A stretch of 64,000 nucleotides of DNA from Candidatus Ancaeobacter aquaticus (GCA_030765405.1 JAVCCP010000071.1:8615-72614); one strand, 5' to 3'. Numbered from the stretch's first letter, positions 19,292 to 61,842 are shown. Numbers and translations: made by a program. Notes: generated from the letters alone by a model not told the origin.

Positions 19292-19717
19292 TCATCTCCT
19301 CCTTTCAAATATTGGAAGTCTTTTGTCTTTCTTTATAGATACAATTATCCTAATACAAATTAATTTGGGAATATCTTACATTACTCAGAAAATTTGTCAA
19401 TATTTTTTTATTTAAAAATAATTCATTTAAACCATAGCGGTACTATTTCTTAAATATTACGTTCTTACGCACTACACATCTACATTCATTAACGATCAGA
19501 TAAAAAATATTTGTTATATATTTTTATCTATACATTCTTTTTATTCGCACACATAGGTTAATAAGATTGACAAGGAATTTACATGTATGTGGATAAATTT
19601 ATTTTCAGATTTTGAATTTATTATTTGTTTAGAGTTTAGGATTTTCTTTAGGGTCTGTAGTCTGTGTAAGTGGTTCGTTGCATATCACTGTATAGTGTTT
19701 TTTCTCTTTATTTTTTC

Positions 19718-19746
19718 TTGACAGGCACAATATATAGTACTACTAT
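19718..19746 (+). promoter_or_regulatory. Candidate sigma70 promoter of smc
   Basis: TTGACA at 19718-19723, an exact 17-nt spacer, and TACTAT at 19741-19746, 62 nt upstream of the smc ATG. Confidence 0.45.
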
Positions 19747-19808
19747 CTTTCAAAAGAAAATTTATTCGTGACTTTTAAGCTAACCCGTAAAATAACGACT
19801 ATATAACA

Positions 19809-22800
19809 ATGTACTTTAAGCGAATTGAAATAGCTGGCTTTAAATCCTTTCTTGGAAAAACCGTCCTTGATTTCGAACCCGGTATCGCTGTTATTGTTGG
19901 CCCTAATGGCTGCGGTAAGAGCAATATCTCTGATGCGATCAGATGGGTTATTGGCGAGCAAAGCGCTAAGCTTCTCCGCGGCGCCCGCATGGAAGATGTT
20001 ATTTTTAACGGTGCCGACGATAAAAAACCCCTCAGTATGGCTGAAGCTTCCATTACACTTGCTGATTGTGATAAGGACCTCCCTCTCGGATATAATGAAA
20101 TAACGGTAACGCGCCGTATTTACCGTTCAGGTGAAGGTGAATACTTCATAAATAAGACCCCATGCCGATTAAAAGACATTAACGAGCTCTTCATGGGTAC
20201 CGGTGTTGGAAAACAAGCATACTCAATTATTGAGCAAGGGAAGATCGGACAAATACTTTCAACAAAACCTGAAGAACGCCGACATATTTTCGAAGAAGCC
20301 GCAGGAATCACAAAATATAAAAGCAGAAAACGTGAAGCATTACGAAAAATCGAACATACCGAAGAGAACCTTATCCGCCTTAACGACATCATTAAAGAAG
20401 TGAAACGGCAAATCAATTCCATTAATCGATATGCGAAAAAAGCTCATGAATATAAATCTGTGTACGATGAACTTAAAGAACTCGATATTCATTATAATTA
20501 TTATAAATACTTTGAGCTCAAAGCAGCTGCCGACGAAACGGCTAAACAAATAACTCTGATTAAAGAAAATGAATCGCAACATACGAGCCGTATTAGAGAG
20601 CTCGAAGAAGCATCAGACAAGGTTCGACAAGATCTCGATGTTTTAGAACAGTCGATCATGTCTTTTGAAAACGATCGCTTGTCAACTTCAGAAGCAATAA
20701 ACCAGACTGAAAGCGAAATAACGTTACATGAGGAACGCGTGCGAGACCTAAAGCTTCTTGAAGAAAATGCGCTTAAAGAAATTGAGGCACTCAAAGAAAA
20801 TCTTGGTCAGTTTGAAGCACAACAAAAAGGATCAGAAGAAGAATATACGCGTATTAAAGAATCAAATGTAGCACTCAAAACAATTATTAAAGAAAAGCAT
20901 GAGCAGATCCATGCTTATAGTACACGCATCAAAGAGAAGGAAATGGAATTAGCGAAGAATAAAGAAGAATCGTTTGAGATGCTCTCCGTTGAAACAAGAA
21001 CGCGCAATGAATTCTCAAACTTTCAAATGGAAAAAAAGAATGTATCACTTCGTAAAGAGAAACTACATGTTGAAAAAAATGAAATTATCGATCAGTGCGA
21101 ATCAATAGACGCAGAATTCACAGCACTTAAGACAACTATAGACGAAGAAGAAATTTCTACTCGTTCACTCCGAGAATCTATACATGCTTTAACACACACT
21201 CAAAACACTATTTCTGAAGACGTAAAACAGCACACCGAAAAAATTCAACACTTGAAAGAGCAATTATCCGAAAAACGTGCAGATCTAAAACTGCTTAACG
21301 AACTTAAAGAACGATTCGAAGGTTATGATACAGGAGTGCGCTCAATACTTGAAACATGTACACAGGGAACAGCAAACGGTATCATAGGCCCCATAGCAGA
21401 CTTTATCGAGATTAAGCCTGGGTACGAGCTTCCTGTGCAGCTTGCCCTTTCTCAAGACATGCAAGACATTCTGACCGATGATATAGACTCTATTAAGGAT
21501 CATATTTCGTATTTAAAAGAACATGGAAGCGGACGAGCATCATTTATTCCCTTTATCGACTTTAAATATCGCATTAACACTGAAACCAAAAAAGATACTT
21601 TCGAGCACCTTTTACACAATCCATCCGTAAAAGGATTCGTTGCAGACTTTATCCAGTGTAAAACAACCTTTAAAGACATCATTGAGTTTCTCTTTAAGGA
21701 CACTCTTGTCGTTGACACATTCGATTCTGCACTTAAACTCATTAAGCATGAGAACTTTAATTGCAATATCGTTACGCTTACCGGTGAAATGATTGACAAA
21801 AATGGTATTGTACGCGGCGGGAGCATACCGAAAGAAGAGCTCGAAATACTCAAACGTGATAATGATATCGAATCTCTCATCAAGACGATTCAAACACTTG
21901 AAAATGATATAGAAAACAACTCAGCCCTAAAAGATAAAGAAGAACTCGAACTTAAAAAGATTGTAGACGACATAACAGTCCAACGTGAAAAACTCAGAGA
22001 AAGCGAAGTGCTTCTCGGCACAAAAAAGAATGATTTTGATAAAGTCCGTTCACAAAAAGAGCGTTTACAGGATCATCACACTGTCATTGTTTCAGAAATA
22101 AAAGAACTATTCTCTGAAGACGAAAAAGTGACCCAGGAGATTGAAAAGCTCAATACCCTTTTAAACGAAAAAGAACAGGCAAACGTCACACTAAAAGTAA
22201 ACCTTTCAGATATCGAAGCAACACTTACAGAGATCAACCGGGAAAAAGATGAACTCGCCGAAGAAATGACTCGATACAAAATTGATCTGGCATCTTCTGA
22301 AGAAAAAGAATTTAACACACAGGCTGGGCTGGGTAGAATTATTGAAGACCTTGCTTCAAAAAATGCATTACTCACCAGTCGCACACAGGACTGTGCAAGC
22401 TATAACGAGAAACAGATTGAATTTACACATTCCATTGAGGCGGCAAAAAATAAACTGTCATCCTTAACGGTAAAAAAAGAAGGCATAGAAAAATATCTTG
22501 AAGAAACAAAAATAAAAAAACGTTCGTTTATTAATGAACTATCCGAAATTGAAGAAGAACAAAAAGAGCTTAGATCTCTTTTAACATCATACAGCGAAAA
22601 ACGTATGCAGCATGAGATTAAAATATCTGAAACAAAAATGCACCTCTCAGCAATGATTGAACATGTCAGAAAAGATTACCACATTGCTCTTGATGAGGTC
22701 TCTCTCTCTCTTGAAGAAAATACTGATTGGACTGCAGTCGAAGAGCGGATTGAAGAACTGAAAGCTATTCTCGAAAAAATCGGACCGGTGAACCTTGCCG

Positions 22801-23636
22801 CTATTGAGGAAAATGAAGAATTAGAAAAACGACACGCATTCATGGTCAAACAGCATGAGGATCTGGTCAAAGCAAAAGAAACATTAATGAAAGTTATCTC
22901 AAAAATCAACTCTACAACTCGTAAGCTTTTTATCGATACCTTTACCCAGGTAAGAACTAATTTTCAGGAAATGTTCGTACACCTCTTTGGCGGCGGTAAA
23001 GCAGATCTCATATTGGGAGATGAATCGGACATACTTGAGACAGGTATAGAGATCATTGCGCGGCCTCCGGGAAAGAAACTGCAAAATATTTCTCTTCTTT
23101 CCGGTGGAGAGAAAGCGCTTACTGCAGTCTCCCTGTTATTTGCAATATTCAAGGTAAAACCAAGTCCGTTTTGCGTCTTGGATGAAATTGACGCACCGCT
23201 TGATGAATCAAATATCGGCAGATTCACCGACGTCTTAAAAGACTTTGCTAAAGAATCACAATTTATCGTTATTACACATAACAAGAAAACTATTAGTTCT
23301 GCGGACATCATGTACGGAATTACTATGGAACAGATGGGTGTTTCTAAGGTTGTTTCCGTGCGGTTCTCACCAAAAAGAGATAAAGCTGAAAAAGAGGTGC
23401 AAGAAACATTACCTATCGAGGGTGTTCAAAAACCGTTAAGACACGAGCTCCGCTATGATGATGACTTGAGCTCTATTGATAAAGAATTAAATATCGAAAT
23501 AAAAGAACCACTTTCACAGACTACTGACCTCAGTCAACAGACCTCAGACGTCAGACCAGAGACTACAGACACCGTACCTCAAACATCTGACAGCATACCA
23601 CAGACTACGGACGTAAGACCAGAGACTACAGACTAA
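19809..23636 (+). CDS. smc: Chromosome segregation protein SMC, with a ~100-aa non-canonical C-terminal extension
   Basis: N-terminal Walker A (FKSFLGKTVLDFEPGIAVIVGPNGCGKSNISDAI), long coiled coils and a hinge. C-terminal signature LSGGEKALTAVSLLFAIF and Walker B FCVLDEIDAPLDE. Confidence 0.92.
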   Translation: MYFKRIEIAGFKSFLGKTVLDFEPGIAVIVGPNGCGKSNISDAIRWVIGEQSAKLLRGARMEDVIFNGADDKKPLSMAEASITLADCDKDLPLGYNEITVTRRIYRSGEGEYFINKTPCRLKDINELFMGTGVGKQAYSIIEQGKIGQILSTKPEERRHIFEEAAGITKYKSRKREALRKIEHTEENLIRLNDIIKEVKRQINSINRYAKKAHEYKSVYDELKELDIHYNYYKYFELKAAADETAKQITLIKENESQHTSRIRELEEASDKVRQDLDVLEQSIMSFENDRLSTSEAINQTESEITLHEERVRDLKLLEENALKEIEALKENLGQFEAQQKGSEEEYTRIKESNVALKTIIKEKHEQIHAYSTRIKEKEMELAKNKEESFEMLSVETRTRNEFSNFQMEKKNVSLRKEKLHVEKNEIIDQCESIDAEFTALKTTIDEEEISTRSLRESIHALTHTQNTISEDVKQHTEKIQHLKEQLSEKRADLKLLNELKERFEGYDTGVRSILETCTQGTANGIIGPIADFIEIKPGYELPVQLALSQDMQDILTDDIDSIKDHISYLKEHGSGRASFIPFIDFKYRINTETKKDTFEHLLHNPSVKGFVADFIQCKTTFKDIIEFLFKDTLVVDTFDSALKLIKHENFNCNIVTLTGEMIDKNGIVRGGSIPKEELEILKRDNDIESLIKTIQTLENDIENNSALKDKEELELKKIVDDITVQREKLRESEVLLGTKKNDFDKVRSQKERLQDHHTVIVSEIKELFSEDEKVTQEIEKLNTLLNEKEQANVTLKVNLSDIEATLTEINREKDELAEEMTRYKIDLASSEEKEFNTQAGLGRIIEDLASKNALLTSRTQDCASYNEKQIEFTHSIEAAKNKLSSLTVKKEGIEKYLEETKIKKRSFINELSEIEEEQKELRSLLTSYSEKRMQHEIKISETKMHLSAMIEHVRKDYHIALDEVSLSLEENTDWTAVEERIEELKAILEKIGPVNLAAIEENEELEKRHAFMVKQHEDLVKAKETLMKVISKINSTTRKLFIDTFTQVRTNFQEMFVHLFGGGKADLILGDESDILETGIEIIARPPGKKLQNISLLSGGEKALTAVSLLFAIFKVKPSPFCVLDEIDAPLDESNIGRFTDVLKDFAKESQFIVITHNKKTISSADIMYGITMEQMGVSKVVSVRFSPKRDKAEKEVQETLPIEGVQKPLRHELRYDDDLSSIDKELNIEIKEPLSQTTDLSQQTSDVRPETTDTVPQTSDSIPQTTDVRPETTD
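23515..23633 (+). repeat. Heptanucleotide tandem array, NNNAGAC (CAGAC) family, 17 in-phase units
   Basis: The units read cacagac tactgac ctcagtc aacagac ctcagac gtcagac cagagac tacagac accgtac ctcaaac atctgac agcatac cacagac tacggac gtaagac cagagac tacagac. The array lies inside the 3' end of the smc ORF. Confidence 0.9.
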
Positions 23637-23668
23637 ATCGTTGTTCATATCTCGTGATTCGTGAATCG
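23634..23668 (+). repeat. Heptamer units of the ...TCG / CGTGAWT family, continuing in the same phase
   Basis: Units read taaatcg ttgttca tatctcg tgattcg tgaatcg. The first unit contains the smc stop codon. Confidence 0.7.
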
Positions 23669-23734
23669 TACCAAAGAAATCAATAAGTGAATTTCTCTAG
23701 GTGTACTCCCAATGGGGCCTCCAATTAAAAATAA

Positions 23735-23755
23735 TACGCTATCCGCTAAACGCTA
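23735..23755 (+). repeat. Heptamer array, NNCGCTA family (3 units)
   Basis: tacgcta tccgcta aacgcta. Confidence 0.75.
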
Positions 23756-23770
23756 TATTTAGTATATTAT

Positions 23771-23805
23771 CTTATAGCATATAACTTACAGCTTACGGCT
23801 AAACT
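23771..23805 (-). repeat. Heptamer array, GCTNTAA family in reverse orientation (CTTAYAG, 5 units)
   Basis: Units read cttatag catataa cttacag cttacgg ctaaact. The array overlaps the stop codon and last codons of the radical SAM gene. Confidence 0.75.
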
Positions 23806-24706
23806 TTATTCCCTGGTAGGTATTTCTTCTTTCGAATTCCTTATCAATCTTATGTAACACCGGGGCTTTTTCCGTTGTCCACAGTGGTGCAATAAGTTTT
23901 CCGCTCGGCCCATCCCCCATCACCCGCTGAACAATTATACAAGGATCTAAATGTTCCAAAAAATCACATACTAAACTTACATACTCATCCACCTCAAAAA
24001 GGGGTGTTCCACCCTTTTTATATTTTTCTTCCAACACTGTGCCCTTAACAATGTGTAAATGATGAAGCTTCACTCCTTCTAAACCTAACTCTGATATCTT
24101 TTTTGCCGCAGATATATAATCTTCATGCGTATCTCCCGGCAACCCGAGAATAATATGCGCACATATATTGATACCTTTTCTCTTTTTAATGCGATTAATG
24201 GCATCGTATATTTCATCAGTACCGTGTCCCCTATTAATTGCACGAAGCGCCTTATCATTAAATGATTGGATGCCGAGCTCGATCCATACTTCGTACTGCG
24301 CAGTATACCCCTCAATTACATCTAACACAGGTTCGCTCACACAATCTGGTCTGGTACCGATCGCTATTCCTACAACACCCTCATGTTCATTAACTGTGCC
24401 ATAAACCTCGTTTAATTTATCAGGATCGGCATAGGTATTTGAAAATGCCTGAAAATAAGCAATAAACTTCTCTACCCCATACCTCCTACTGAGAAACTCT
24501 ATTCCCTTCTCTATCTGCTCTGATACACTGCTATTTTCAGAGCAATATGGAGCGCGATTACCGCCTTCGTCACAGTAGATACACCCACCTGTTGATACGG
24601 TGCCATCCCTGTTTGGACAGGTGAAACCGGCATCAATGGATATTTTATATACTTTTTGACCATACTTTTTTTTAAGATAAGTGCTGAACTTTGTGTAGCA
24701 TTCCAT
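23786..24706 (-). CDS. Radical SAM protein, TIGR01212 (YhcC-like) family
   Basis: The N-terminus KISIDAGFTCPNRDGTVSTGGCIYCDE is the characteristic TIGR01212 cluster motif. Length is 306 aa. Confidence 0.85.
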   Translation of the reverse strand: MECYTKFSTYLKKKYGQKVYKISIDAGFTCPNRDGTVSTGGCIYCDEGGNRAPYCSENSSVSEQIEKGIEFLSRRYGVEKFIAYFQAFSNTYADPDKLNEVYGTVNEHEGVVGIAIGTRPDCVSEPVLDVIEGYTAQYEVWIELGIQSFNDKALRAINRGHGTDEIYDAINRIKKRKGINICAHIILGLPGDTHEDYISAAKKISELGLEGVKLHHLHIVKGTVLEEKYKKGGTPLFEVDEYVSLVCDFLEHLDPCIIVQRVMGDGPSGKLIAPLWTTEKAPVLHKIDKEFERRNTYQGIKFSRKL

Positions 24707-24740
24707 ATTAATTTAGACCCCAACTACATATTATTATTCA

Positions 24741-24775
24741 GCTGTAAGCTTTAAGCTGTAAGCTATATGTTTTAA
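24741..24775 (+). repeat. Heptamer array, GCTNTAA family (5 units)
   Basis: gctgtaa gctttaa gctgtaa gctatat gttttaa. Confidence 0.8.
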
Positions 24776-24914
24776 GCTCCAATAATCAAATAGCAATTAC
24801 CAAACAAATTTCAATACACAATGACTAAAATACCAAACCATATGTTTGATTATTGGTAATTATTTGCCCCGAGAAATTTGAAAAATTCCCGGGATTTAGT
24901 CCCTTGGGGAGAAA

Positions 24915-24935
24915 TTGGTATTTGGTTATTGGTAT
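24915..24935 (+). repeat. Heptamer array, TTGGTAT family (3 units)
   Basis: Units read ttggtat ttggtta ttggtat. The complementary ATACCAA-type words lie at 24796-24803 and 24830-24837. Confidence 0.7.
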
Positions 24936-24939
24936 TTAA

Positions 24940-24974
24940 ACGAGATACGATTCACTAATAACGAACCACGAAAA
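24940..24974 (+). repeat. Heptamer array, ACGANNN family (5 units)
   Basis: acgagat acgattc actaata acgaacc acgaaaa. Confidence 0.65.
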
Positions 24975-25007
24975 AAAGCCCCGGGATTGTATTCCCAGGG
25001 CTTTTTT
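24971..25007 (-). terminator. Bidirectional intrinsic terminator downstream of the FecR-domain gene
   Basis: Stem gccccggg (24978-24985) / cccagggc (24994-25001) with one mismatch and an 8-nt loop. It is flanked by A7 (24971-24977, read as U7 on the minus strand) and T6 (25002-25007). Confidence 0.7.
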
Positions 25008-25029
25008 GTTTTTCTATTAATCAAATCAA

Positions 25030-26022
25030 TTATGGATTTGATGGACTATCTTCTAATATTTCCTGAATCTGTTTTTTATTTAGAAAATTTAAACTGTTGT
25101 TTGTTTGACTAGGATCTGGTTGATTTGCATCTCCTCCACCAGTCTTTTTCTGTGCGTTCTGCGCAGCTTGCGCTGCTGCATTACGAACCGGTGGTAACTG
25201 TGATGGAAGCGCAGCTTTCATGCTCCCAGAATCGTCAATTGTTACGGTCATTCCCGCTTCAAATGTATGTGTCTCACTATATCTGCCTGAAGAAGTAACA
25301 ACAACACTACCTTTTGTTACCGCAATAGTCGAACCAGTTGCATCTGTTTCTACCGCATTTGTCGGATTAATAGCAATTGTTGTACCATTTGCCATTACTA
25401 CATCTACATCACCTGACAAACCCTCAATGCTAACGTTACCATTTGCATCAACACTTACCTGTATTGAATCACCGTCACCAAGACTGACGTTCGGACGACT
25501 ATCACCAGCACCAAGCTCTACGAGAACTAAACCTTCTTCAGTTAAAATCTGTACCGTACCATCAGCAAGAACTGACAATGATACTGTTGTTCCCTTTACC
25601 GCTGCAACTGCACTTGGGGTAACAAACTCTGTCTTTGTTGATGTTCCCGGAGTAATCTTTGCCCACATGTCACCAACAAAAAGTTTAATTCTTCTCGTTA
25701 CCTGTCCCGAAGATTCATCTTTAAGATCTGTTATTGTTGTCACACTATGATCTTTTATCTTTAATATCGATCCATCAGGATATACTATATCTGCTGTACC
25801 GTTTTCAGTCTTAATGCTATCTCCGCTACCCAACTTAACATCACTTCTCTTTATTTCAACCCACTTATCTGAATCTACGGTTTTCACCAACACTTTACCA
25901 TCATACGATGATATTACAGCTGATGCATCATCTGCATATAAACTTCCCGCTGTTACAAATCCTATTGCCACAAAAACAGCCACTGCAGAAACACAGAGTT
26001 TCTTATAAAAAGACATGCCCAC
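25030..26022 (-). CDS. Secreted FecR-domain protein
   Basis: Signal peptide, then a FecR-like pattern: YDGKVLVKTVDSDKWVEIKRSDVKLGSGDSIKTENGTADIVYPDGSILKIKDHS...VKGTTVSL. Confidence 0.7.
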   Translation of the reverse strand: MGMSFYKKLCVSAVAVFVAIGFVTAGSLYADDASAVISSYDGKVLVKTVDSDKWVEIKRSDVKLGSGDSIKTENGTADIVYPDGSILKIKDHSVTTITDLKDESSGQVTRRIKLFVGDMWAKITPGTSTKTEFVTPSAVAAVKGTTVSLSVLADGTVQILTEEGLVLVELGAGDSRPNVSLGDGDSIQVSVDANGNVSIEGLSGDVDVVMANGTTIAINPTNAVETDATGSTIAVTKGSVVVTSSGRYSETHTFEAGMTVTIDDSGSMKAALPSQLPPVRNAAAQAAQNAQKKTGGGDANQPDPSQTNNSLNFLNKKQIQEILEDSPSNP

Positions 26023-26216
26023 CTCCCGTTTGGTTTTCTATATTTATTTTCTAGAAGAATTGTAGGATAAATACAATTATACGTCAACAAAAATCTAACA
26101 ATATTATCATCTTTTATCATTTCTTTTTTTATTTGATATTTTTGCCATATTATATTAAAATATTAATTGTAAATATACATTGAGAATATTACTTAAAAAA
26201 TACAAAAGGGATATAT

Positions 26217-29200
26217 ATGAACCTTGCAGAATTTGCTGTAAAAAAGCCCGTGTCTACCATGATGGCGTATCTTGGCCTATTCCTTCTCGGACTCCTTACT
26301 TACACTATGATTCCTCAAGATCTTTATCCGCCGATCACGTTTCCACAGCTTACTGTTGTTACAAACTACCCGAATGCTGCCCCCGAAGAAGTGGAAAACT
26401 TGGTCACTAAAGTTATTGAAGAAGCGGTCAGTACCGTTAAGGGCGTAAAAAATATTCGCTCGGTTTCACGTGAAGGCACCTCTATGGTTCTTGTTGAGTT
26501 CACCTGGGGGACAAAACTGGATTTTGCTTCACTTGCCATGCGTGAGAAGATCGATTTAGTTAAGTCGCGTCTTCCCCGTGATGCCAACGAACCGATTGTA
26601 CTTAAATTTAATCCGTTTGCGCGCCCAATGATGGTATTGAGCGTTACCGGAAATTATTCACCCGAAGACCTCCTGAAAGTATCGGAAAAAATACTCAAGG
26701 ACAAGCTCGAAAAAGTAAAAGGCGTCGCTTCAGCAGGCTTAAGTGGTGGTCGGGAACGGCAAATATTCGTTGAAATCAATCAGGCGCAGTTAAAAGCGAG
26801 TCGCGCCGATATTCTCTCAATTGTCCAGTCACTAAAGGATTCAAATCTTAACTATCCCGGCGGATCAACAAAAGAAAAGTTTTATGAATATCTTATCCGG
26901 ACAATGGGAGAATTCGAACATGTCTCTGATATTGGTAAAACAGTGATTACGCTTGAAGATGCGAAGGATCAAAGAAGACGAGACCAAGAAAGAAGTACCG
27001 GCGGCTGGGACCAACTTCAAATTAAAAGCGATAAAGACCGCAGAGGATTCCAGAAAAGAATTATCACACTAAATGACGTGTCAGTCATAGTGGATGACTT
27101 CAAAGAAATTGAAAGTTATTCCCGCTATAACGGTAAAAATAATATTTCTATTGCAATACAAAAACAAACCGCAGCAAACACCATAAAAACCGCAGAAAAG
27201 GTACGTAAAGAGCTCAAAAAACTCCTTCCCATGCTTCCTAAAGGAGTGGATGTAGACATTGTTTATGACCAGTCGATCTTTATTAAAAATTCTATAAGGG
27301 GTCTTTTTGATAATGCGTGGCAAGGCGGGTTGCTTGCCTTTATCATCTTATTTCTGTTTTTGAGGAGTTTTGTAAATTCGCTCATTGTTATCTTTATTAT
27401 CCCAACTTCAATCCTGGCAACTTTTTCGCTGATGCATTTTACCGGGGTCTCGATCAATATGATGAGCTTGGCAGGGCTAGCAATGGGTGTCGGTATGATT
27501 ATTGATAGCGGTATCGTTTTAATCGAAAATGTGTCTATCAAGAGGGAAGAAGGAATGGGACAAAAAGAAGCAGCAATTTCAGGAACATCGGAACTGGCTA
27601 AACTCGTTATTAGTTCGATACTCTCAAATGCTGCCGTGTTCTTCCCTATGATCTTCGTTATCGGTATCGCCGGTCAGCTGTTCAAACAATTATCAATGGT
27701 CGTTGTATTTATCCTGCTTGTATCGGTACCAATCGCTATAACTATTGTTCCCCGGCTGTATAGCATGGGAAACAGACCATTTGTAAAAAAACCAGAGTTT
27801 GGCATCATTCTTATTGCAAGAAAACTTTACGATAAAGCACTCAACATCTTTCTCAACTTTCCTATTACAAGTCTTCTTGCAATTTTTGTTCTTTTTATGT
27901 CCAGTCTCTTCCTTATGTCAAAACTTGATTTTACCGCTATGCCAAAAGTCGATGAAGGTAAATTCTCCATTAAAGTTGATATGAGGACCGGCACAGTTCT
28001 CGCTGTAACAAATGCGGCTGTTGAAAAAGTCGAAAAGATATTACTTGAAGCCCCTGAGATCAAAGATGTCACTGTGAGGGTAGGATCAACAAAATCGACA
28101 AAAGCCGGGGCATCCCTTGAAACACTCGGCAGCAATCAGGGTCAGATCATGCTAAACATGAAAGAAGGTCTAAAAATATCGACAAATGATTTTGTGCAAC
28201 AGATCAGAGAAAAGATCGACAAACTGCACTTGAAAGAAGCGACCATAAACTATATCGTGCAAGACAGTGAAATAGGCTCTGCATTTGCCGGTGGGGCAGA
28301 TATCGTTATTGATGTCAAAGGACCAAGACTTGATACCCTTGAAAAATTCACTAGAGAAATAAAAGCAGCACTTAAAAAAATACCGGGACTTACCAATATT
28401 AAAGACACCGTTCCAAAATCCGCACCTGAGACAAAAATATTGGTAAGAAAAGATAAAGCCGCTTCATACGGGCTTTCTGTTAAAGCAGTTGCAGAAACCG
28501 CACTCTATGCCGTCAAGGGTGTTGTCCCCACAAGGCTCAAAGAAGGAGGACGCGAAATCGACATCATGGTACGTATGAGAGAAGAAGACAGAAAAAATAT
28601 CGATACATTGAAAAAATCTATTTATATTAAGACACAGCAAGGATTTGATGCCCCATTAAATGATGTGTGTACCCTCAAAAGCGGCATGGGACCCAGCGAA
28701 GTCATCCGACTCAATCAGAGACGAACCATAAATGTTCTCGCGAATATCTATGGAAGAAAACGTGTTGAAGTTGAACAAGAAGTTGAAAAAGCACTGAAGA
28801 GCATTATTATGACTAAAGCAGAAAAAGAAAACTACACCATTGATATTGGCGGTGATAGAGAAGCAACTCAAAAATCGATACAGAGTCTTGTATTTGCACT
28901 CATATTATCAGTACTCTTGATCTACATGATCATGGCAAGCCAATTTGAATCGCTCTGGCAACCGTTTATTATCATGTTCTCAATTCCCCTATCGATCATC
29001 GGTGTTGCAGTAGCGCTATATGTGACAAATACCCCATTATCCGGCGTGGCTTTTTTCGGTATCATTATACTTGGTGGTATTGTGGTCAATAACGGCATCA
29101 TTTTGATAGAGAATTTCAACATGCTTAGAGAAGAAGGTGAAACACTCCGTGAGGCACTTGTTGAATCAGGCAGAAAGAGATTTCGCCCGATTATCATGAC

Positions 29201-29387: not shown

Positions 29388-29402
29388 AGTGTGATTCTTT
29401 TT

Positions 29403-29482
29403 CGATGAACGATAAACAATCCCCTACGGGGACAATACTCAGAAAAATTTACTTATTAATTTTATGGGTGTGAACGATAAAC
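29403..29482 (+). repeat. 80-nt repeated element, copy A (partner at 41641-41720)
   Basis: Gap-free alignment by eye to 41641-41720 gives 68/80 identical positions. The central 53 nt are 49/53 identical. The copy lies between the two RND genes. Confidence 0.85.
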
Positions 29483-38461: not shown

Positions 38462-38496
38462 CTTATAGCTTAAAGCTTACAGCCTATAGTTCTAAG
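38462..38496 (-). repeat. Heptamer array, GCTNTAA family in reverse orientation (5 units), between queC and queE
   Basis: cttatag cttaaag cttacag cctatag ttctaag. Confidence 0.8.
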
Positions 38497-40972: not shown

Positions 40973-40982
40973 AAAGAATACT

Positions 40983-41586: not shown

Positions 41587-41640
41587 AGTCAAAAAACAAA
41601 TATTACGTTTAGTGAATCGATCTAGCGAAAAACTTTCTAT

Positions 41641-41720
41641 CGATGAATCATCAACGATCCCCTACGAGGACAATACCCAGAAAAATTTACTTATAAATTT
41701 TATGAGTGTAGACGATGAAC
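41641..41720 (+). repeat. 80-nt repeated element, copy B (partner at 29403-29482)
   Basis: See copy A: 68/80 identity without gaps. Confidence 0.85.
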
Positions 41721-41762
41721 TAAACTGCGCTCACCGCTTACCGATCAACTAACACCGCAAAA

Positions 41763-41876
41763 TTAATGTCCGCCTTTGGGTATTTTTCCATGACATGCTT
41801 GTCTATTAGCACGTGCTTTTCTGACAGCTTTTTTACGGCTTGACTTACAAATTCGTTTCGCTCTATTTTTTGGCAT
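41763..41876 (-). CDS. Small very basic peptide (37 aa), unannotated sORF
   Basis: My own translation is MPKNRAKRICKSSRKKAVRKARANRQACHGKIPKGGH. A strong SD (aaGAAGGAGtgtagtATG) precedes it. It is below the 60-aa cut-off of the ORF track. Confidence 0.4.
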   Translation of the reverse strand: MPKNRAKRICKSSRKKAVRKARANRQACHGKIPKGGH

Positions 41877-41893
41877 ACTACACTCCTTCTTTT

Positions 41894-41928
41894 GTCAGAC
41901 TATAGACATCAGACCACCGACTACAGAC
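41894..41928 (+). repeat. Heptamer array, NNNAGAC family (5 units)
   Basis: Units read gtcagac tatagac atcagac caccgac tacagac. On the minus strand they read as GTCTGNN units directly 5' of the sORF's SD. Confidence 0.85.
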
Positions 41929-42061
41929 CTTTTATTTAAATAAATTCACACCTAATAAGGGAAAAGTAAAAACTAATGTGGGGTCTTCAGCCAATTTAAT
42001 AAAATATTATATTAATCCTTAGTTTTGAATTTTTCTTTTTAACTTTAGACTTTAGCAAAAA

Positions 42062-42471
42062 TGGTGGAGGTGGCGGGAGTTGAACCCGCGTCCTTGAGCG
42101 GCTCGAATATAACGTCTACATGCTTATTCTATCTTTAGTTCTCATCTCCCAAAGGATAATAGAAAAACCTTAAAGGAGATCAGCAGCGTAAAGTTCGCTT
42201 CTCACCCCGCCGCATAATGAGAAACTAGCCTATTAATCGGCGTCTATAATAATGAACAGGCACATCACCATAGACGAGCTACTTAATTAAGCAGCGTTAG
42301 CTAACACCCCAAGATTAATTGATGGAGCCTTAATGGCTGGCACAATATTCTCAAAGGGTATAATTTTACCTTTGTCAGCATTTATGTGTTTGCCAGGTTT
42401 TTAGGAGGCCACCTGACACCCTCCGCATGCAATTATACTCTGCAATCACAAGTCGAATCCGAATCACCCCC
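42062..42471 (-). ncRNA. ssrA: tmRNA (transfer-messenger RNA)
   Basis: Minus strand 5' GGGGGUGAUUCGGAUUCGAC... and 3' ...GGGUUCAACUCCCGCCACCUCCACCA. The 7-bp acceptor stem has the G3:U pair, and the T-arm is GGGUUCAACUCCC. An internal open frame ends ...GVLANAA-UAA. The gene is adjacent to smpB. Confidence 0.93.
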
Positions 42472-45576: not shown

Positions 45577-45619
45577 TACGCTAAACGCTCTGTTTACCAT
45601 TACCTGTTATGGTAAACAG
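45577..45619 (+). repeat. Two NNCGCTA heptamer units followed by a perfect 11-bp stem-loop
   Basis: tacgcta aacgctc, then ctgtttaccat (45590-45600) pairs with atggtaaacag (45609-45619) around an 8-nt loop. It lies between phoH2 and tRNA-Leu. Confidence 0.6.
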
Positions 45620-45631
45620 ATAATTCACTTT

Positions 45632-45715
45632 GCCGAGATGGTGAAATTGGTAGACGCACTAGATTCAGAGTCTAGCGCCCGCAAGGGCTTGGGGGTTCAA
45701 ATCCCCCTCTCGGCA
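45632..45715 (+). tRNA. tRNA-Leu (anticodon CAG), class II with a long variable arm
   Basis: Acceptor GCCGAGA/TCTCGGC plus discriminator A. Anticodon stem ctaga/tctag with loop TTCAGAG. Variable arm cgcccgcaagggc. T-arm GGGGG-TTCAAAT-CCCCC. No encoded CCA. Confidence 0.93.
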
Positions 45716-45720
45716 TTTTC

Positions 45721-45748
45721 GTTAATAGTTCATAGTTCAACGATAAAC
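45721..45748 (+). repeat. Heptamer array, GTTCANN family switching to GATAAAC (4 units)
   Basis: Units read gttaata gttcata gttcaac gataaac. The array lies between tRNA-Leu and the stop of the NRAMP-family gene. Confidence 0.75.
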
Positions 45749-51037: not shown

Positions 51038-51519
51038 GAGACACCTCCAAACTCGCCGAGTTTTCCTTCTCGCATAAACTCAACTAATTCATAATCTCCT
51101 ATTTCAATAGCCTCTATTTGATCTAACAAGGCATAATTAAACCCTGGATTTTCTTCTCTATATTTTTTTTCAACCAACGGATTAAATCCTTTACCTGCAA
51201 GCGCTACTTCATCAGCAGAAATATTTCCCGTACCGACTTTACCGGCATGTGACAGATTAAGCTTTTTTAAAACACATGATGAGGCATGGATCCATCCAAC
51301 AGCACCGGATGAAGTTTTAACCTTTATCCACTGATTTTGTTTCCCCATTTCATCCAACCAATCTCCTCGTAAGACAGTTGCTATTGATGGCGCATAAAAT
51401 TTTGGAAGTTTCCTGACTTTTGCTTTCTTTTGCCTTACAGTAATAGTTTTAGCGTAACACGTCTCGGAAACAAAAAACACTGCCATAAACACAATTAGAA
51501 TATATAGATATTTCTTCAT
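51025..51519 (-). CDS. Secreted bacterial SH3-domain protein
   Basis: Signal peptide, then an SH3_3-like segment AKVRKLPKFYAPSIATVLRGDWLDEMGKQNQWIKVKTSSGAVGWIHASS. Strong SD GGGAGGGAG. It overlaps the M48 gene by 13 nt. Confidence 0.6.
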   Translation of the reverse strand: MKKYLYILIVFMAVFFVSETCYAKTITVRQKKAKVRKLPKFYAPSIATVLRGDWLDEMGKQNQWIKVKTSSGAVGWIHASSCVLKKLNLSHAGKVGTGNISADEVALAGKGFNPLVEKKYREENPGFNYALLDQIEAIEIGDYELVEFMREGKLGEFGGVSCDQ

Positions 51520-51536
51520 ACAAACTCCCTCCCTTT

Positions 51537-51811
51537 AGGGGTTGTGAAATAATAATACCCCCAATTTGGAGGCTCAAGTTTGAACCGTATGCAAGACGCT
51601 ACAACGCTGACGTCCCCTCTGTGGTACGTCAAGGAGGAGCAACAAAGCAGACGGTCAAAGATGAGCCTCCCCAAATGGGCTGGCCACTTTTTGGCTGCAA
51701 CGGCGTCACTCATTGTTTGCGTATCGCAGGGGATACGCGGCACTCTTCGTTCCTTGTTTCGCTCAAAAATAGACTCAGCCAAATTGTGGATATTATTATT
51801 TCACAACTCCT
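51537..51811 (-). ncRNA. Candidate structured RNA or cis-regulatory leader of unknown class; alternative reading is a MITE-like insert with ~29-bp terminal inverted repeats
   Basis: The core is GC-rich within AT-rich surroundings. The closing helix 51541-51569 / 51779-51807 has 29 positions with 2 mismatches and can extend by 4 bp. At least four internal helices are present (see finding). The strand was chosen from context: the element ends 4 nt before the SD of the SH3 gene. Confidence 0.4.
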
Positions 51812-54446: not shown

Positions 54447-54507
54447 TAGCGTGTAGCGAATAGTTAAAAAATTAAAGCAAAATCTAAACGCTACGCGCTA
54501 TACGCTA
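54447..54507. repeat. Opposed NNCGCTA heptamer arrays forming a dyad between convergent genes
   Basis: tagcgtg tagcgaa (54447-54460) faces aacgcta cgcgcta tacgcta (54487-54507). Confidence 0.75.
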
Positions 54508-57433: not shown

Positions 57434-58354
57434 TTATAATGCCCCGTCATCTACAAACTTTACTTCATAGAGAACATCATGTGCTTTTTGCAACGCTTGA
57501 GATCTCTTTATCTCATTGGTTTCTTTCTGTGCATACTTTTTGTAATACGTATTCGCATCATCAACTCTTTTCAGTTCTTCATATGCCATTGCAACACCGA
57601 GATAGCCGGAAGAAAAATTCTCATCTAATTCAATCGTACGCATAAATTCTATCACTGCCTCATTGTAGCGCTTCATAGCCATAAGCGCTCTCCCTTTACG
57701 GTAATACGCCGAAATATATTTTGGTCGTTTTCTCAATACTTTATTGTATTCCGTCAGGGCATCCCTGTATTTTCCCTGTGACTCATATATATTTGCAAGA
57801 TTATATCTCGAATATACATTGTTACGGTCAAGACTGAGTGATTTCTTAAACGCATATACCGCTTGATCATATTCATGCCGCTGTGAATGGATAACTCCTA
57901 TATTAAAGTACGCCTTTGCTGTTGGATAATTCTTTATCGATCGATCAAATTCCTGTAACGCTTTTTGAAAATCGTTTTTTTTCTTATACGCAATACCTAA
58001 ACAATAATGTACCCCTTTATAAAAATAATTATACTCAGTAAGTCTTATGAGGTAGTCAATTGCCTGATCATACTCATCACGCATAATACTTATCACCCCT
58101 AAGTAATAATATGCTGTCTCTGATCGAGAATTCTGCATTAAGGCATCTTTAAAACTGTCCTCTGCACGTTTAATGAGTCCTTTATTATAATACTCGATAC
58201 CACGTGACAAGGTATCTATACCGTAGACACTCCTCACGGAGAAATTCAGTAGAATTATACAAGGAAGGATACAAAGAAATAAAAAATTAAAAATTCTCAA
58301 GGAGTTTCTTTTTTCTTTCTTTAAACTCTGCTTCGGTAATAATACCATCATCAA
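57434..58354 (-). CDS. Membrane-anchored or secreted TPR-repeat protein
   Basis: N-terminal hydrophobic segment plus about 6 TPR units (YYNKGL..., YYYLGV..., HYCLGIAY..., YFNIGV..., RYNLANIY..., YYRKGRA...). It overlaps the upstream gene by 68 nt, so the start is uncertain. Confidence 0.7.
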   Translation of the reverse strand: MMMVLLPKQSLKKEKRNSLRIFNFLFLCILPCIILLNFSVRSVYGIDTLSRGIEYYNKGLIKRAEDSFKDALMQNSRSETAYYYLGVISIMRDEYDQAIDYLIRLTEYNYFYKGVHYCLGIAYKKKNDFQKALQEFDRSIKNYPTAKAYFNIGVIHSQRHEYDQAVYAFKKSLSLDRNNVYSRYNLANIYESQGKYRDALTEYNKVLRKRPKYISAYYRKGRALMAMKRYNEAVIEFMRTIELDENFSSGYLGVAMAYEELKRVDDANTYYKKYAQKETNEIKRSQALQKAHDVLYEVKFVDDGAL

Positions 58355-60518
58355 ATAACTTTCGCAAATTATGCAATTTTTTACTCATCAGATCAGGATC
58401 AATCTCTTCAGATACTACTTTTGTCGGTTCTTCTTTATCAGTCTTTATGTCGTTTCCTTTTTCCAGATCACTAATAACGGCAAGTTCCTCAGCCGCCTTG
58501 TCAATTTGCCCCATATTCATATATACTGATGCAAGCGCACGATGAGCATCTCCGTAGCGTGGATTCACCGTCAGTGCCAGCTTAAAATGAGATATTGCTT
58601 CCTCTAACTGTCCAATATTGACATATAGCTTGCCAAGCTTACAATTAATATCCGGATATTCGGGATGCAACCCCAATATTTCTTTCAAGGGAACTGTTGC
58701 CTCCTCAAACCGCTTTTGTGAAACATATAAATCAGCTAGTTCTCCCCGGCCCTTAATATCTGTCGGTGTAATACGAGATTTCAGATCCTCAATTTTATCT
58801 TCAATACGTTTTTGCTTTTTCGCACCTTCTTCTTTTTTGCCTAATTCTGCCTGCATCTTTTCAAGCATCATACGCGCTTTTTCCGCTTTAACCTGCTGTA
58901 TTTTTTCAGTATCACCCTGTTCTTTTGCTATGCGCTCTTCTTCAGCTCTCTTTTCGTTCAGTAAACGGTCTGCTTCTTGCTTCTCTTTTTCAAGTCGCTG
59001 GGTTTCAACTTTCAACTTTTCTTGCGCTTCTTTTTCAACTTGTTCACGTGCTTGTCTCTCTTCTGACGCTTTTGCTTCAGCTTGCTTTTGTGCTTCTGCT
59101 TTTGCATCTACTTCCTTAAGTGCTTCTTCTTTTTCTTTTACAAGCGTGTCAATTTCCGCTTTCATTTTTTCAAGTGCAACGGCTTGTTCCTTTTCTTTCT
59201 CTTTAAGCTCCTTCTCAAGTTTTTCGCGGGACTTCTTTTCGGTTTCTTCAAACTCTTGTTTTTCTTTTACTGCCTTCTTCTTCGATTCTTTTTCGGCCTC
59301 TTGCGCCATTCGATCTTTTTCTGCCAATTCTTTTTCTATCTCTTGCGCTACGCGCTCTTTCTCTGCCAACTCTTTTTCAAGCTTTTCGCGCATTTTCTTT
59401 TCTTCTTCGACTTTTTCCTGCGCGCGCTTCTCAGCTTCTGCTTTTTCTTTTTCAAGTTTGACAGCTGCTTCTTTTTCCTTCTCCAGCCGCGCTTTTTCCT
59501 CTTTATCTCTTTGAGATTTTTCAGCTTCCGCTTTTTCTCGAGCTTTGCGTTCTTCTTCAGCCTTCTCTATCGCCATACGCTGGGCCGCTTCCTTTTCTTT
59601 TGCAATTTTACTCGCCTCTTCAGCCGCATCTACGTCTTCAGTCTTTTTATCTTTTTGCTTTACTGCTTTTTCTTCTTGAGAAGTTTTCTTCTTCTCCTGA
59701 GCAATCTCATCAAGGAATGATTGTGCATCAGACTCATTTGGATCGATTTCTAATATCTTTTTAAACTGCGATTGGGCATCTTCAAACATTTCTTTAGAAA
59801 GGTAAAGATTACCAAGATTGTAAAAAGTATCTATATCTTCAGGATTAATCTCTATACCCTTGCGATATTCTTCAATAGCAGTATCAGCCTCACCTCGCAG
59901 AACATAAATATTTCCAAGGTTGTAGTGTATGCCAGGAAACTCAGGATTAATAAGCACAACTTCATTGAACTCTTTTAAAGCATCTTCATATTGTTCTTTC
60001 TCCTGATAACATATACCAAGAGAATTACATGCAGCAGTATGTTTCGCGTTGATAGAAATGACCTTCTTAAATTGTTCAATTGCTTCATCTATTTTTTTGT
60101 TTTGCAGACATTCAAGACCTTTATTGTAATACAGGGTATCTTCATTACCTTCAAGCTTAATAATACGTTCTTTGACAATATCTTTGTCGGACGCATTAGG
60201 AGATACCTCAAGATACTTTTTATAATACTGATTTGACAAGTCTTTATCACCTGTTTTACCGTAAAACTCTCCAAGATTATAGTATGCATCAGCAAATTTA
60301 GGATCTAACGCTATTGCATTCTTTGTTTCTTCAATTGCTTCTTTATATTTTCCTGATTTAGCAAGTTTGCATGCCTTATTAAATGCTGCAACACTCTTAG
60401 ACGCTCCAAAGATCATTGCAACAGGCAATAGCCCGACAATATCTTGTATATTATTAAGTATATCGTGCATAAATACGTATCCTTTCATTTCTATTATATA
60501 TACCGAATTGTACACCAT
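58287..60518 (-). CDS. TPR protein with a ~290-aa Glu/Lys-rich coiled-coil insert and a C-terminal SHOCT domain
   Basis: TPR units flank a long EKxxAE-type charged helix. The C-terminus LRKLFDDGIITEAEFKERKKKLL matches the SHOCT pattern. Confidence 0.75.
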   Translation of the reverse strand: MVYNSVYIIEMKGYVFMHDILNNIQDIVGLLPVAMIFGASKSVAAFNKACKLAKSGKYKEAIEETKNAIALDPKFADAYYNLGEFYGKTGDKDLSNQYYKKYLEVSPNASDKDIVKERIIKLEGNEDTLYYNKGLECLQNKKIDEAIEQFKKVISINAKHTAACNSLGICYQEKEQYEDALKEFNEVVLINPEFPGIHYNLGNIYVLRGEADTAIEEYRKGIEINPEDIDTFYNLGNLYLSKEMFEDAQSQFKKILEIDPNESDAQSFLDEIAQEKKKTSQEEKAVKQKDKKTEDVDAAEEASKIAKEKEAAQRMAIEKAEEERKAREKAEAEKSQRDKEEKARLEKEKEAAVKLEKEKAEAEKRAQEKVEEEKKMREKLEKELAEKERVAQEIEKELAEKDRMAQEAEKESKKKAVKEKQEFEETEKKSREKLEKELKEKEKEQAVALEKMKAEIDTLVKEKEEALKEVDAKAEAQKQAEAKASEERQAREQVEKEAQEKLKVETQRLEKEKQEADRLLNEKRAEEERIAKEQGDTEKIQQVKAEKARMMLEKMQAELGKKEEGAKKQKRIEDKIEDLKSRITPTDIKGRGELADLYVSQKRFEEATVPLKEILGLHPEYPDINCKLGKLYVNIGQLEEAISHFKLALTVNPRYGDAHRALASVYMNMGQIDKAAEELAVISDLEKGNDIKTDKEEPTKVVSEEIDPDLMSKKLHNLRKLFDDGIITEAEFKERKKKLLENF

Positions 60519-60617
60519 TTTTAAATATATTCAAGAAACTTTACGTATATTTTACTTGCGCACATTGTGTATATATTTATAATAAGAAGCCATTTATAAA
60601 CAAACTGCGAGCATATT

Positions 60618-61805
60618 ATGAGTGCTATTTTATATTACACTTTTCTCATTATTTCATTGGTTGGTATTGCTATATGGATAGACCGGTATCTTGAAACTCA
60701 CAGAAGTGTCGCGAAAGACCCCAAACTCAATATTGACTCGTATACACAACATTCTGATAGTCTTCCTTTCATATCCGTCCTTATCCCTGCATTAAATGAA
60801 GAAAAGAATATCGGCACCTGCCTCTCCTCACTTATGAATCAACAATACCCGCATTTTGAGGTTATTGTCATAAATGACCGTTCCACTGATAACACTCGCT
60901 CAATTGTTGAAGATTTTCAAAAAAAATATTCCAATATCACCCTTATTAATAACGACCAACTACATGAAGGATGGTCTGGAAAAAATTATGCGCTTAACAA
61001 AGGGGTCGCGCACGCAAAAGGCCAGTGGTATCTTTTTACCGATGCTGATACATATCATCATCCCCAAAGTCTTTTTCAATCTACAAGCTATGTCATAGAT
61101 AAAAAAGTGGATATGCTTACTTTGATTCCCTACCTCGAAGGCATAAGCTTTTGGGAAAAACTTTTACAACCCATTGCGGGAGCAATTCTTCTTGTATCAT
61201 TTCCGATAAAATATTCCAATAACCCAAAAAAGAAAACAGCATTCGCCAACGGACAATACATCTTGATCAATAAAGACGTATACCATTCATTCGGTGGTCA
61301 TGAAGCGCTAAAAAGTTGCCTACTTGAAGATATCGCCATGGCTAAAATAGTTAAAACGAGCGGATACTCACTCAATGTCGCGGTGAGCCCCGATGTTTAC
61401 AAGACTAGAATGTATAAGAATTTTAAGGAAATATGGAATGGATGGACAAGAATATTTCATATTATTTACGACAAAAGAATATCACTGATATTCCTGAATG
61501 CATTACTCTTATTTGTCTTTTCACTTCTTCCGCTTTTCTTAATGTTATTCTGCATTATCTTCTTTATTATTACTCGAGAAATAGACATCCCTATTCTTAT
61601 CCTTCTAGTTGTAACCATTATTGAAATCATTTTCATACGCTTAACCACATTTCGGTTCTATAGGCTGGCCAAAATGAACCCTTACATATCACTCTTAAAT
61701 CCACTAGGATGCATTATCATGCTCGGAGTGCTTATGAATGCCATACTAAAAACATTCTCTAAAAAAGGCATGACCTGGCGAGGAACAACATATCAGAAAG
61801 TGTAA
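60618..61805 (+). CDS. Membrane-bound family 2 glycosyltransferase
   Basis: VLIPALNEE, INDRSTDNT and FTDADT (DxD) motifs, plus N- and C-terminal transmembrane helices. Confidence 0.8.
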   Translation: MSAILYYTFLIISLVGIAIWIDRYLETHRSVAKDPKLNIDSYTQHSDSLPFISVLIPALNEEKNIGTCLSSLMNQQYPHFEVIVINDRSTDNTRSIVEDFQKKYSNITLINNDQLHEGWSGKNYALNKGVAHAKGQWYLFTDADTYHHPQSLFQSTSYVIDKKVDMLTLIPYLEGISFWEKLLQPIAGAILLVSFPIKYSNNPKKKTAFANGQYILINKDVYHSFGGHEALKSCLLEDIAMAKIVKTSGYSLNVAVSPDVYKTRMYKNFKEIWNGWTRIFHIIYDKRISLIFLNALLLFVFSLLPLFLMLFCIIFFIITREIDIPILILLVVTIIEIIFIRLTTFRFYRLAKMNPYISLLNPLGCIIMLGVLMNAILKTFSKKGMTWRGTTYQKV

Positions 61806-61807
61806 AC

Positions 61808-61842
61808 CGTGAATCGTAGATCGTGATTCGTGGATCGAAAAA
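61808..61842 (+). repeat. Heptamer array, CGTGAWT family (5 units), starting 3 nt after the GT2 stop
   Basis: cgtgaat cgtagat cgtgatt cgtggat cgaaaaa. Confidence 0.85.

Follow-up and report, generated by a model that had tools for sequence, protein, structure and literature searches.

Tandem arrays of seven-nucleotide units occur in the intergenic DNA of the 64,000-nt stretch of Candidatus Ancaeobacter aquaticus analysed here (GCA_030765405.1, JAVCCP010000071.1:8615-72614; "the window" means this whole stretch), where they fall into a few recurrent families, lie preferentially behind gene 3' ends, have decayed, are absent from the loci of three syntenic relatives and do not vary between independent assemblies. 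They are a non-cyanobacterial case of the known heptanucleotide repeats, in a new phylum, and no new category of repeat. The explanation that we favour, and that we hold at about an even chance, is that they resemble the short tandemly repeated repetitive (STRR) sequences of cyanobacteria, are now degenerate, and were added at gene 3' flanks in this lineage, where they have been tolerated and frozen.

When the intergenic DNA of the window was pooled (5,008 nt), identity at lag 7 was 0.328, against 0.284 +/- 0.006 in 200 dinucleotide-preserving shuffles (z=7.5), with further excesses at lag 14 (z=5.3) and lag 21 (z=3.2), whereas coding DNA (lag-7 identity 0.255) had no excess and showed only the usual 3-nt periodicity. 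The gene model behind this division was built from long open reading frames (ORFs), plus a tmRNA (42062-42471, minus strand) and a tRNA-Leu (45631-45716, plus strand). An earlier note on this DNA, made from the sequence alone, had proposed a comparison of this kind for the source genome, and the outcome for the window agrees with the excess expected there. A lag-k segment scan of the window returned 21 period-7 segments (777 nt), against 0-11 for each other period from 4 to 15, and Tandem Repeats Finder reported period-7 arrays at 23515, 23600, 24740, 24913, 38462, 40900, 40942, 41452, 45721 and 54484, among others, the array at 61808 being scored as period 14. The arrays listed in the earlier note are all present at, or a few nucleotides from, the positions given, the first CGTGAWT array being in the register 23653-23673 and not 23648-23668. 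No arrays were found in positions 1-19,600 of the window, nor in about 19 kb of flanking contig that is almost all coding, so that the word "pervasive", used in that note, describes a real intergenic excess but is valid only for the rest of the window. The units are 7 nt long and contiguous, unlike the 23-50 nt repeats with unique spacers of similar length that define CRISPR, which had also been discounted.

Five to six unit families were recognized, each recurring at 2-5 separate loci in the window (CGCTA at 5, AGCTNTA at 4, CGTNNNT and AGAC at 3 each, and GTTCA at 2-4). In comparison with 100 shuffles, CGCTANNCGCTA was matched 7 times, at four loci (0.08 expected), AGCTNTAAGCTNTA 5 times, at three loci (0.01 expected), AGAC-N3-AGAC-N3-AGAC 5 times (0.00 expected) and CGT-N3-TCGT-N3-TCGT 3 times (0.03 expected), counts so far above the shuffles that the proposal of several recurrent families stands, although the ACGANNN array at 24940-24974, which exists but had been given a family of its own, is the reverse complement of the CGTNNNT family. 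Different families had also been said to abut without losing phase; one direct junction of this kind was found (23633/23634), the register between different cores is arbitrary, and phase continuity was rejected as a general property. A T-rich AACTAT leader (81-82% over 33-37 nt) is common to three CGCTA arrays, and the CGTGAWT arrays share the context TAAAYCGT, which begins at the stop codon; the four AGCTNTA loci have nothing in common outside the array itself. The arrays and the related dispersed element are the following (no strand is given where none was assigned).

19609-19666: weak arrays ATTTNNN (three units), TAGNNTT (two units) and GTCTGTA GTCTGTG (reversed AGAC), in the divergent spacer upstream of smc
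23515-23633, plus strand: NNNAGAC array of 17 units, encoding the smc 3' end (last ~40 codons)
23634-23673, plus strand: NNNNTCG / CGTGAWT array, beginning at the smc stop codon
23735-23755, plus strand: NNCGCTA array of 3 units, in the smc/radical SAM convergent spacer
23771-23805, minus strand: AGCTNTA array (minus-strand reading), holding the stop codon of the radical SAM (TIGR01212) gene
24740-24775, plus strand: AGCTNTA array, 34 nt upstream of the radical SAM start and inverted relative to 23771-23805
24915-24935: TTGGTAT array of 3 units
24940-24974, minus strand: CGTNNNT-family array (ACGANNN on the plus strand), directly distal to the conserved FecR-gene terminator hairpin at 24975-25013
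29402-29482, plus strand: 81-nt dispersed element, copy 1, with GATGAAC/GATAAAC heptamer ends (GTTCANN family, reversed)
38462-38496, minus strand: AGCTNTA array, 39 nt downstream of queC
40894-40928, plus strand: GTTCANN array, 8 nt past the stop of a 76-aa AsnC-type gene (40656-40886, plus strand)
40945-40972, plus strand: NNCGCTA array of 4 units, with a T-rich AACTATA leader, as at 45577 and 54447
41452-41480, plus strand: AGCTNTA array, holding the stop codon of ORF 40983-41459
41640-41720, plus strand: 81-nt element, copy 2, 86% identical to copy 1
41894-41928, plus strand: NNNAGAC array of 5 units
42012-42055: loose period-7 segment (TTAGNNN / ACTTTAG), 7 nt beyond the tmRNA 3' end
45577-45590, plus strand: NNCGCTA array of 2 units, 67 nt past the stop of a phoH-like gene and followed by an 11-bp hairpin
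45721-45748, plus strand: GTTCANN array, 5 nt past the 3' end of tRNA-Leu and equally far (5 nt) from the Nramp stop
54447-54507: inverted CGCTA pair (TAGCG at 54447-54460, CGCTA at 54487-54507), the only array site with a strong hairpin
61808-61842, plus strand: CGTGAWT array of 5 units, 3 nt past a glycosyltransferase stop

Of these arrays, 18 were compared with the gene model: 10 lie within 30 nt of a gene 3' end, as do 18.6% of intergenic positions (p=5e-4), and 14 within 60 nt (p=8e-5), which bears out the 3'-end association first described, with no enrichment near 5' ends, 19609-19666 being the only clearly 5'-only site. Arrays are present in 5 of the 6 convergent spacers, 5 of the 15 co-directional ones and 1 of the 7 divergent ones. 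The spacer 40887-40982 is counted as co-directional instead of divergent because of the gene call at 40656-40886 (plus strand), a stand-alone AsnC/Lrp ligand-binding-domain gene lying under two longer antisense ORFs (40610-40867 and 40620-40889), which this call makes spurious. As the earlier note had it, AGCTNTA arrays contain the stop codons of two genes, radical SAM and ORF 40983-41459, whereas the smc stop, which it placed inside an array too, abuts one; stops within AGCTNTA arrays are expected, because the repeated unit includes TAA and 7 and 3 have no common factor. Arrays also stand directly behind the tmRNA and the tRNA-Leu, so that the association is with the ends of transcription units and not with translation stops. 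A role as triple-frame stop pads was rejected: about 4-5 of the 6 cores carry a one-strand stop, yet arrays also follow tRNA and tmRNA, and, by our own rough estimate, some 60% of random AT-rich heptamers would carry such a stop. Many gene 3' ends in the window have no array.

Two further features concern the layout of these sites. Inverted AGCTNTA arrays (23758-23800 and 24747-24789; 43 nt, 74% complementary) flank the entire radical SAM gene, 946 nt apart, and could pair or recombine; the bracketed gene is probably not a mobile cassette, because relatives keep it at the same syntenic position without arrays. The 81-nt element contains an internal CCCCTACG(G/A)GG mini-hairpin and an AT-rich stem, was seen only in contigs of this organism among the loci compared, and could be a repeat similar to a MITE (miniature inverted-repeat transposable element) or a small RNA.

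Predicted RNA folds of the array regions were unremarkable relative to shuffles in 9 of 12 cases (z from -1.4 to +0.7), in keeping with the earlier view that most arrays are not hairpins and do not resemble repetitive extragenic palindromic (REP) sequences or bacterial interspersed mosaic elements (BIME); the imperfect palindromes that characterize the latter were not found, and only the inverted CGCTA pair at 54447-54507 folds strongly as an array (plus-strand z=-4.2, minus-strand z=-2.6), the stability of 41445-41520 (z=-2.8) coming from a hairpin just downstream of the array. Searches against Rfam returned only the tmRNA in 40400-42100, and only the tmRNA and the tRNA-Leu in the whole window at the gathering score. 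Orientation within families relative to the nearest 3' end followed no consistent rule in the window.

The host is, to judge from its genes, an uncultured bacterium of the Planctomycetes-Verrucomicrobia-Chlamydiae (PVC) group, closest to Ca. Auribacterota. The best relatives of its TIGR01212 radical SAM protein (no more than 50-57% identical) come from Ca. Auribacterota, Scalindua/Brocadiaceae and other Planctomycetota, and the gene content is ordinary housekeeping together with anaerobe-type enzymes, both of which indicate that it is not a cyanobacterium, as had been surmised. Three close relatives, one of them an NCBI Ca. Auribacterota metagenome-assembled genome (MAG), share the order FecR, radical SAM and convergent SMC, and no heptamer arrays were found at these loci in any of the three. 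The FecR-radical SAM spacer measures 60-146 nt in the relatives versus 323 nt in the window, and the radical SAM/SMC convergent spacer 24 and 73 nt in two of them and 170 nt in the other (L217), versus 149 nt in the window. Hairpin terminators are present in the convergent spacer of L215 and L217, L219 having no clear hairpin there, and the FecR terminator is conserved in the relatives and in the window (24975-25013). Since the three relatives have no arrays and a shorter SMC, the arrays were added at 3' flanks specifically in this lineage, and, since the genes are kept without them, they are dispensable for their neighbours. The comparison of orthologous loci extends to presence or absence, because the nearest radical SAM proteins are just 55-57% identical. 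In the Auribacterota relative L219, the spacer at 2085-2125 (TGGTTTTGGTTATTTGGATTTTGAATTTCGGATC) has a faint TTGG-type periodicity of about 7 nt, below the detection threshold, that recalls the TTGGTAT array of the window. Repeats are not mentioned in the study of the Ace Lake Auribacterota (PMC9324843), with which the phylum and two of the JGI samples agree; the samples may thus come from Ace Lake.

The 17-unit NNNAGAC array of smc is strongly column-structured and, read in frame, forms a 21-nt heptapeptide repeat (Q/E-T-S/T-D-x-x-x), for which Tandem Repeats Finder scores period 21 above period 7. It gives SMC a 41-residue C-terminal tail (residues ~1235-1275, encoded by 23512-23636: QTTDLSQ QTSDVRP ETTDTVP QTSDSIP QTTDVRP ETTD), whereas the three orthologues stop 8-11 residues after the conserved EIKEP, which makes them about 30 residues shorter at this end. 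The absence of the heptapeptide tail from these orthologues means that a repeat of the non-coding type has been captured as a protein tail.

The arrays are decayed rather than near-perfect, with Tandem Repeats Finder match rates of 65-91%. In the curated arrays, substitutions are more concentrated in columns than in row-preserving permutations (pooled p=0.006), variation being concentrated in 1-3 columns, the most variable of which has 3-4 alleles. With the column test calibrated on simulations in which perfect arrays decay through random substitutions, the automatically detected non-coding arrays reached z=2.4, against 0.6-1.4 (sd ~1) for neutral decay; the conserved core with free positions that had been proposed is, therefore, slightly above what neutral decay produces, but only weakly so for non-coding arrays. 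None of the 81 adjacent unit pairs is identical, against 3.6-16% in the simulations, which is suggestive, not decisive.

The radical SAM protein that adjoins several arrays is encoded on 18 contigs, and 10 independent assembled loci from different samples (ENA, JGI, Logan) are 100% identical to 19001-26300, over up to 7.3 kb, with no variation in unit number; L085 has the sole two mismatches, at the chimeric end of its contig (20135-20136), outside the arrays. Such identity among ten independent assemblies, drawn from three repositories, shows that the arrays are not artefacts, a possibility that the earlier note had left standing. The length polymorphism and slippage that it also considered were not seen among these assemblies, and the arrays do not behave as phase-variable contingency simple sequence repeats: neighbouring units are non-identical, unit number is constant, and the arrays are found behind genes instead of in promoters or 5' coding regions.

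Knowledge of heptanucleotide arrays goes back to 1990, the STRR of heterocystous cyanobacteria, with the classical STRR1-3 units CCCCAGT, TTGGTCA and CAACAGT, being the classical case. No arrays of these units were found in the window, where scattered near-matches occur in coding DNA only, nor any of TAACTGA, GGGAATC or GGGGAYT. Like the STRR of Calothrix, Anabaena and Nostoc, the window arrays consist of 7-nt head-to-tail units, form several multi-locus families and are mainly intergenic, so that the precedent drawn in the earlier note fits in these respects, but their host belongs to the PVC group, and they are short and heavily degenerate, with neighbours that are never identical. STRR are, moreover, not the only precedent, since a heptamer excess has been reported across prokaryotes and GGGNATC and TAACTGA repeats have also been published. 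According to Mrazek 2007, as cited in PMC4679880 and PMC4692102, heptamers are over-represented among the longer simple repeats of prokaryotes; in the summary given in PMC4679880 they outnumber the other classes of such repeats in most genomes, and this abundance is tied by conjecture to the DNA polymerase footprint. The GGGNATC/GGGGAYT repeats of Xanthomonas and Nostoc are 89-93% intergenic, lie at a mean distance of 28 nt from the upstream ORF, whose stop some of them overlap, are found in convergent (16%) versus divergent (8%) spacers, form inverted pairs and occupy stable genomic sites, with no functional pattern among neighbouring genes and no function identified (Rehm et al. 2015, PMC4692102). 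All these positional rules are reproduced by the window arrays, although GGGNATC units are G-rich, form G-quadruplexes and prefer a unit number of four, whereas the window cores (AGAC, CGCTA, AGCTNTA, CGTGAWT, GTTCA) are not G-tracts. TAACTGA direct repeats, found in marine Beggiatoaceae, some Cyanobacteria and Bacteroidetes, are intergenic, have 2-6 copies and place a stop in all three frames, which is tolerated at ORF ends (MacGregor 2015, PMC4679880). They are scattered over unrelated phyla, as AGCTNTA is over contigs with a GC content of 0.26-0.72 among the matches listed, but they are perfect, belong to a single family and lie mostly just upstream of starts in forward orientation, whereas the window arrays belong to several families, are degenerate and stand behind 3' ends. 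Each positional rule seen in the window has already been published for other heptamer families. The REP/BIME of Enterobacteria and Pseudomonas are likewise short, dispersed and abundant in 3' and convergent spacers, but they are hairpin-forming imperfect palindromes mobilised by REP-associated tyrosine transposases (RAYTs), whereas the window arrays are direct repeats with fold z values around 0. The omega repressor of plasmid pSM19035 is a ribbon-helix-helix reader of contiguous 7-bp heptads, direct or inverted, a geometry like that of the window arrays; omega heptads, however, belong to a plasmid promoter/centromere and have a single consensus and a known reader, whereas the window arrays are chromosomal, located at 3' ends and of several families.

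Outside the window, 80 named-genome loci (1.29 Mb) contained 129 period-7 segments versus 39-75 for periods 4, 5, 8, 10 and 11, no other period outside the multiples of 3 being as frequent as period 7, which fits the general heptamer excess as reported in PMC4679880 and PMC4692102, both citing Mrazek 2007. An exact scan for three consecutive AGCTNTA units returned at least 120 metagenome contigs, and many of those listed bear further period-7 arrays and inverted AGCTNTA/TANAGCT pairs. Among the matches listed there are 131 AGCTNTA arrays, of which 5 are inside long ORFs; they favour convergent over divergent spacers (15 vs 8) and stand in sense or antisense orientation at 3' ends about equally (53 vs 50), so that a sense-strand orientation rule was rejected here as in the window. 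The unit families numbered 79 in the named-genome loci and 136 in the metagenome loci and are highly diverse between contigs; a heptamer repertoire shared across taxa was, therefore, rejected, and the common property across genomes is the period, not the unit sequence.

Some of these loci are very rich in heptamer arrays of several families. A MAG labelled Eubacteriales carries 18 arrays in 21 kb (L068, 8059-20371), and other array-rich named loci belong to Desulfobacterales (L033, 9543-14408), Ca. Anammoxibacter (L031), Omnitrophota (L041) and Brocadiaceae (L034), several array-rich loci having an array directly behind the same radical SAM gene. CTTATAG CTTAAAG units resembling those of the window are present in L014 (10925-11011), and a metagenome contig (L176) combines AGCTNTA with TAGCG arrays, as the window does. 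In the metagenome contigs listed (e.g., L100 6017-6148, L096 and L108 1674-1733), closely spaced AGCTNTA ... TANAGCT pairs are frequent and would form long imperfect hairpins.

In the favoured explanation, that of tolerated and frozen STRR-like arrays, a few heptamer unit families would have been seeded at several loci, the leader of about 15-20 nt shared by three CGCTA copies suggesting copying between loci, and each seed would have been amplified locally in 7-nt register by slipped-strand or replication-repair slippage, the usual way in which simple repeats grow, with the preference for heptamers reported among prokaryotes. Neutral retention would then account for the positional bias, arrays surviving only where extra DNA is harmless, that is, behind stops and RNA-gene ends, in convergent spacers and, once, as an SMC tail, until substitutions interrupted every array, stopping slippage and leaving the arrays frozen. 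The confinement of the period-7 excess to intergenic DNA, the prevalence of period 7 in the 80 named-genome loci, the diversity of unit sequences between genomes, the absence of arrays from the three syntenic relatives, the lack of an orientation rule, the unremarkable folds, the near-neutral column variation, the static state of the arrays (no identical neighbours, ten identical assemblies) and the position of some of them beyond a terminator all support it. Several points weigh on the other side. Slippage alone leaves unexplained both the recurrence of the same cores at 3-5 loci and the presence of AGCTNTA triplets in at least 120 metagenome contigs of such different GC content; column concentration is weakly above the neutral level, and the complete lack of identical neighbours suggestively on its low side; in the smc/radical SAM spacer, the one convergent spacer open to comparison, the window has arrays and no terminator hairpin, whereas two of the three relatives have such a hairpin; and we know of no demonstrated mechanism for a 7-nt slippage preference, the polymerase-footprint idea being a published conjecture. 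Since slippage does not explain why the same cores recur, the rival explanations keep real weight.

One of these, which we judge rather unlikely, is a functional lattice, in which core sites of 4-5 nt at 7-nt spacing would be read by an oligomerising protein that marks or insulates the ends of transcription units, by analogy with the omega repressor on double-stranded DNA or, on single strands, with cold-shock-domain proteins (about one per heptamer) or HutP (UAG-N4). It would account for the recurrence of cores far above chance, for variation concentrated in 1-3 columns, for the lack of identical neighbours (as if perfect, unstable repeats were selected against), for the coexistence of direct and inverted arrangements and for a 3'-end placement independent of orientation, which suits a reader of double-stranded DNA; CspB binding to heptamer repeats has, in addition, been discussed for TAACTGA (PMC4679880). 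At least five unrelated cores in 64 kb would, however, demand several specific readers, and no candidate binding protein was identified; the column-concentration signal is almost gone after calibration of the detection bias, the orthologous loci of three relatives do without arrays, many 3' ends are array-free and there are none in ~38 kb of adjacent sequence. That the arrays are REP-like mini-elements, selfish units of array plus short flanks copied to 3' spacers by an enzyme acting in trans or by ectopic gene conversion, with local 7-nt amplification as a secondary event, seems to us quite unlikely, even though the leader common to three CGCTA arrays, the TAAAYCGT context of the CGTGAWT arrays, the two copies of the heptamer-ended 81-nt element, the niche shared with REP/BIME and MITEs and the gain in this lineage only all point that way: the four AGCTNTA loci share only the array, there is no REP-type hairpin, target-site duplications are not evident, and a Pfam scan of the 34 window proteins found no transposase, RAYT or reverse transcriptase. 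The wider claim that an orientation-independent 7-bp lattice, or a REP-like mobile family built of heptads, marks transcription-unit ends in an Auribacterota-like candidate phylum is in our opinion unlikely; if it were true, selection would show both in the conserved core, with its free positions, and in the way identical neighbours are avoided, and the claim would also account for the STRR-type repeats of cyanobacteria, Xanthomonas, Beggiatoaceae, Desulfobacterota, Brocadiia and Omnitrophota.

The arrays might also act in RNA, as transcribed 3' UTRs without structure, serving as landing pads or barriers that would fix where transcripts end or how stable the mRNA is, in place of intrinsic terminators. 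Their enrichment within 30-60 nt of 3' ends, including those of the tmRNA and the tRNA-Leu, the inherently unstructured nature of tandem direct repeats, the lack of enrichment of consensus intrinsic terminators in the window (17 vs 13.3 expected, and 15 vs 12.9) and the smc/radical SAM spacer, which has a terminator hairpin in two relatives and arrays only in the window, are all consistent with this. There is, however, no sense-strand preference, the array block 24915-24974 is distal to the strong FecR terminator, and the best local hairpin at gene 3' ends is equally stable with and without an array (-10.0 vs -10.1 kcal/mol, p=0.46), so that arrays as terminator substitutes were rejected, the 3'-end or RNA-stability signal suggested in the earlier note is weakened, and this explanation, which of the rivals loses most by the tests of orientation, terminators and hairpins, is very improbable. 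Chance or assembly artefact, for which only the general fragility of short repeats in short-read assemblies could be adduced, has a practically negligible probability given z=7.5 against shuffles, a recurrence ~20- to 500-fold over expectation and 10 identical assemblies.

Neither the reason for the 7-nt period nor a function has been established, although such arrays have been known for decades and a prokaryote-wide excess since 2007. To this problem, the window adds a host from a PVC candidate phylum that has hardly been studied, a clean comparison of gain versus absence at syntenic loci, including the array-encoded SMC tail, and evidence that such arrays can be frozen and degenerate instead of hypervariable, with the incidental indication that array-rich genomes also exist in Brocadiia, Desulfobacterota and Omnitrophota. 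Auribacterota populations of the Ace Lake type offer a tractable comparative system in which to ask whether these repeats are selected or merely tolerated.

Other features of the window are minor. For the tmRNA, ARAGORN predicts an unusually long tag peptide of 30 residues (ADKGKIIPFENIVPAIKAPSINLGVLANAA), reflecting either a mispredicted resume codon or a long tag in this lineage. The repeats of 30, 42 and 150 nt at 58966-59606, inside the gene of a tetratricopeptide repeat (TPR) protein (58287-60518), are ordinary coding repeats unrelated to the heptamers. A 33-nt inverted repeat (51537-51569 and 51779-51811; 91% complementary, arms 209 nt apart) brackets a small gene (51516-51782, 88 aa) upstream of a CHASE2-cyclase gene.

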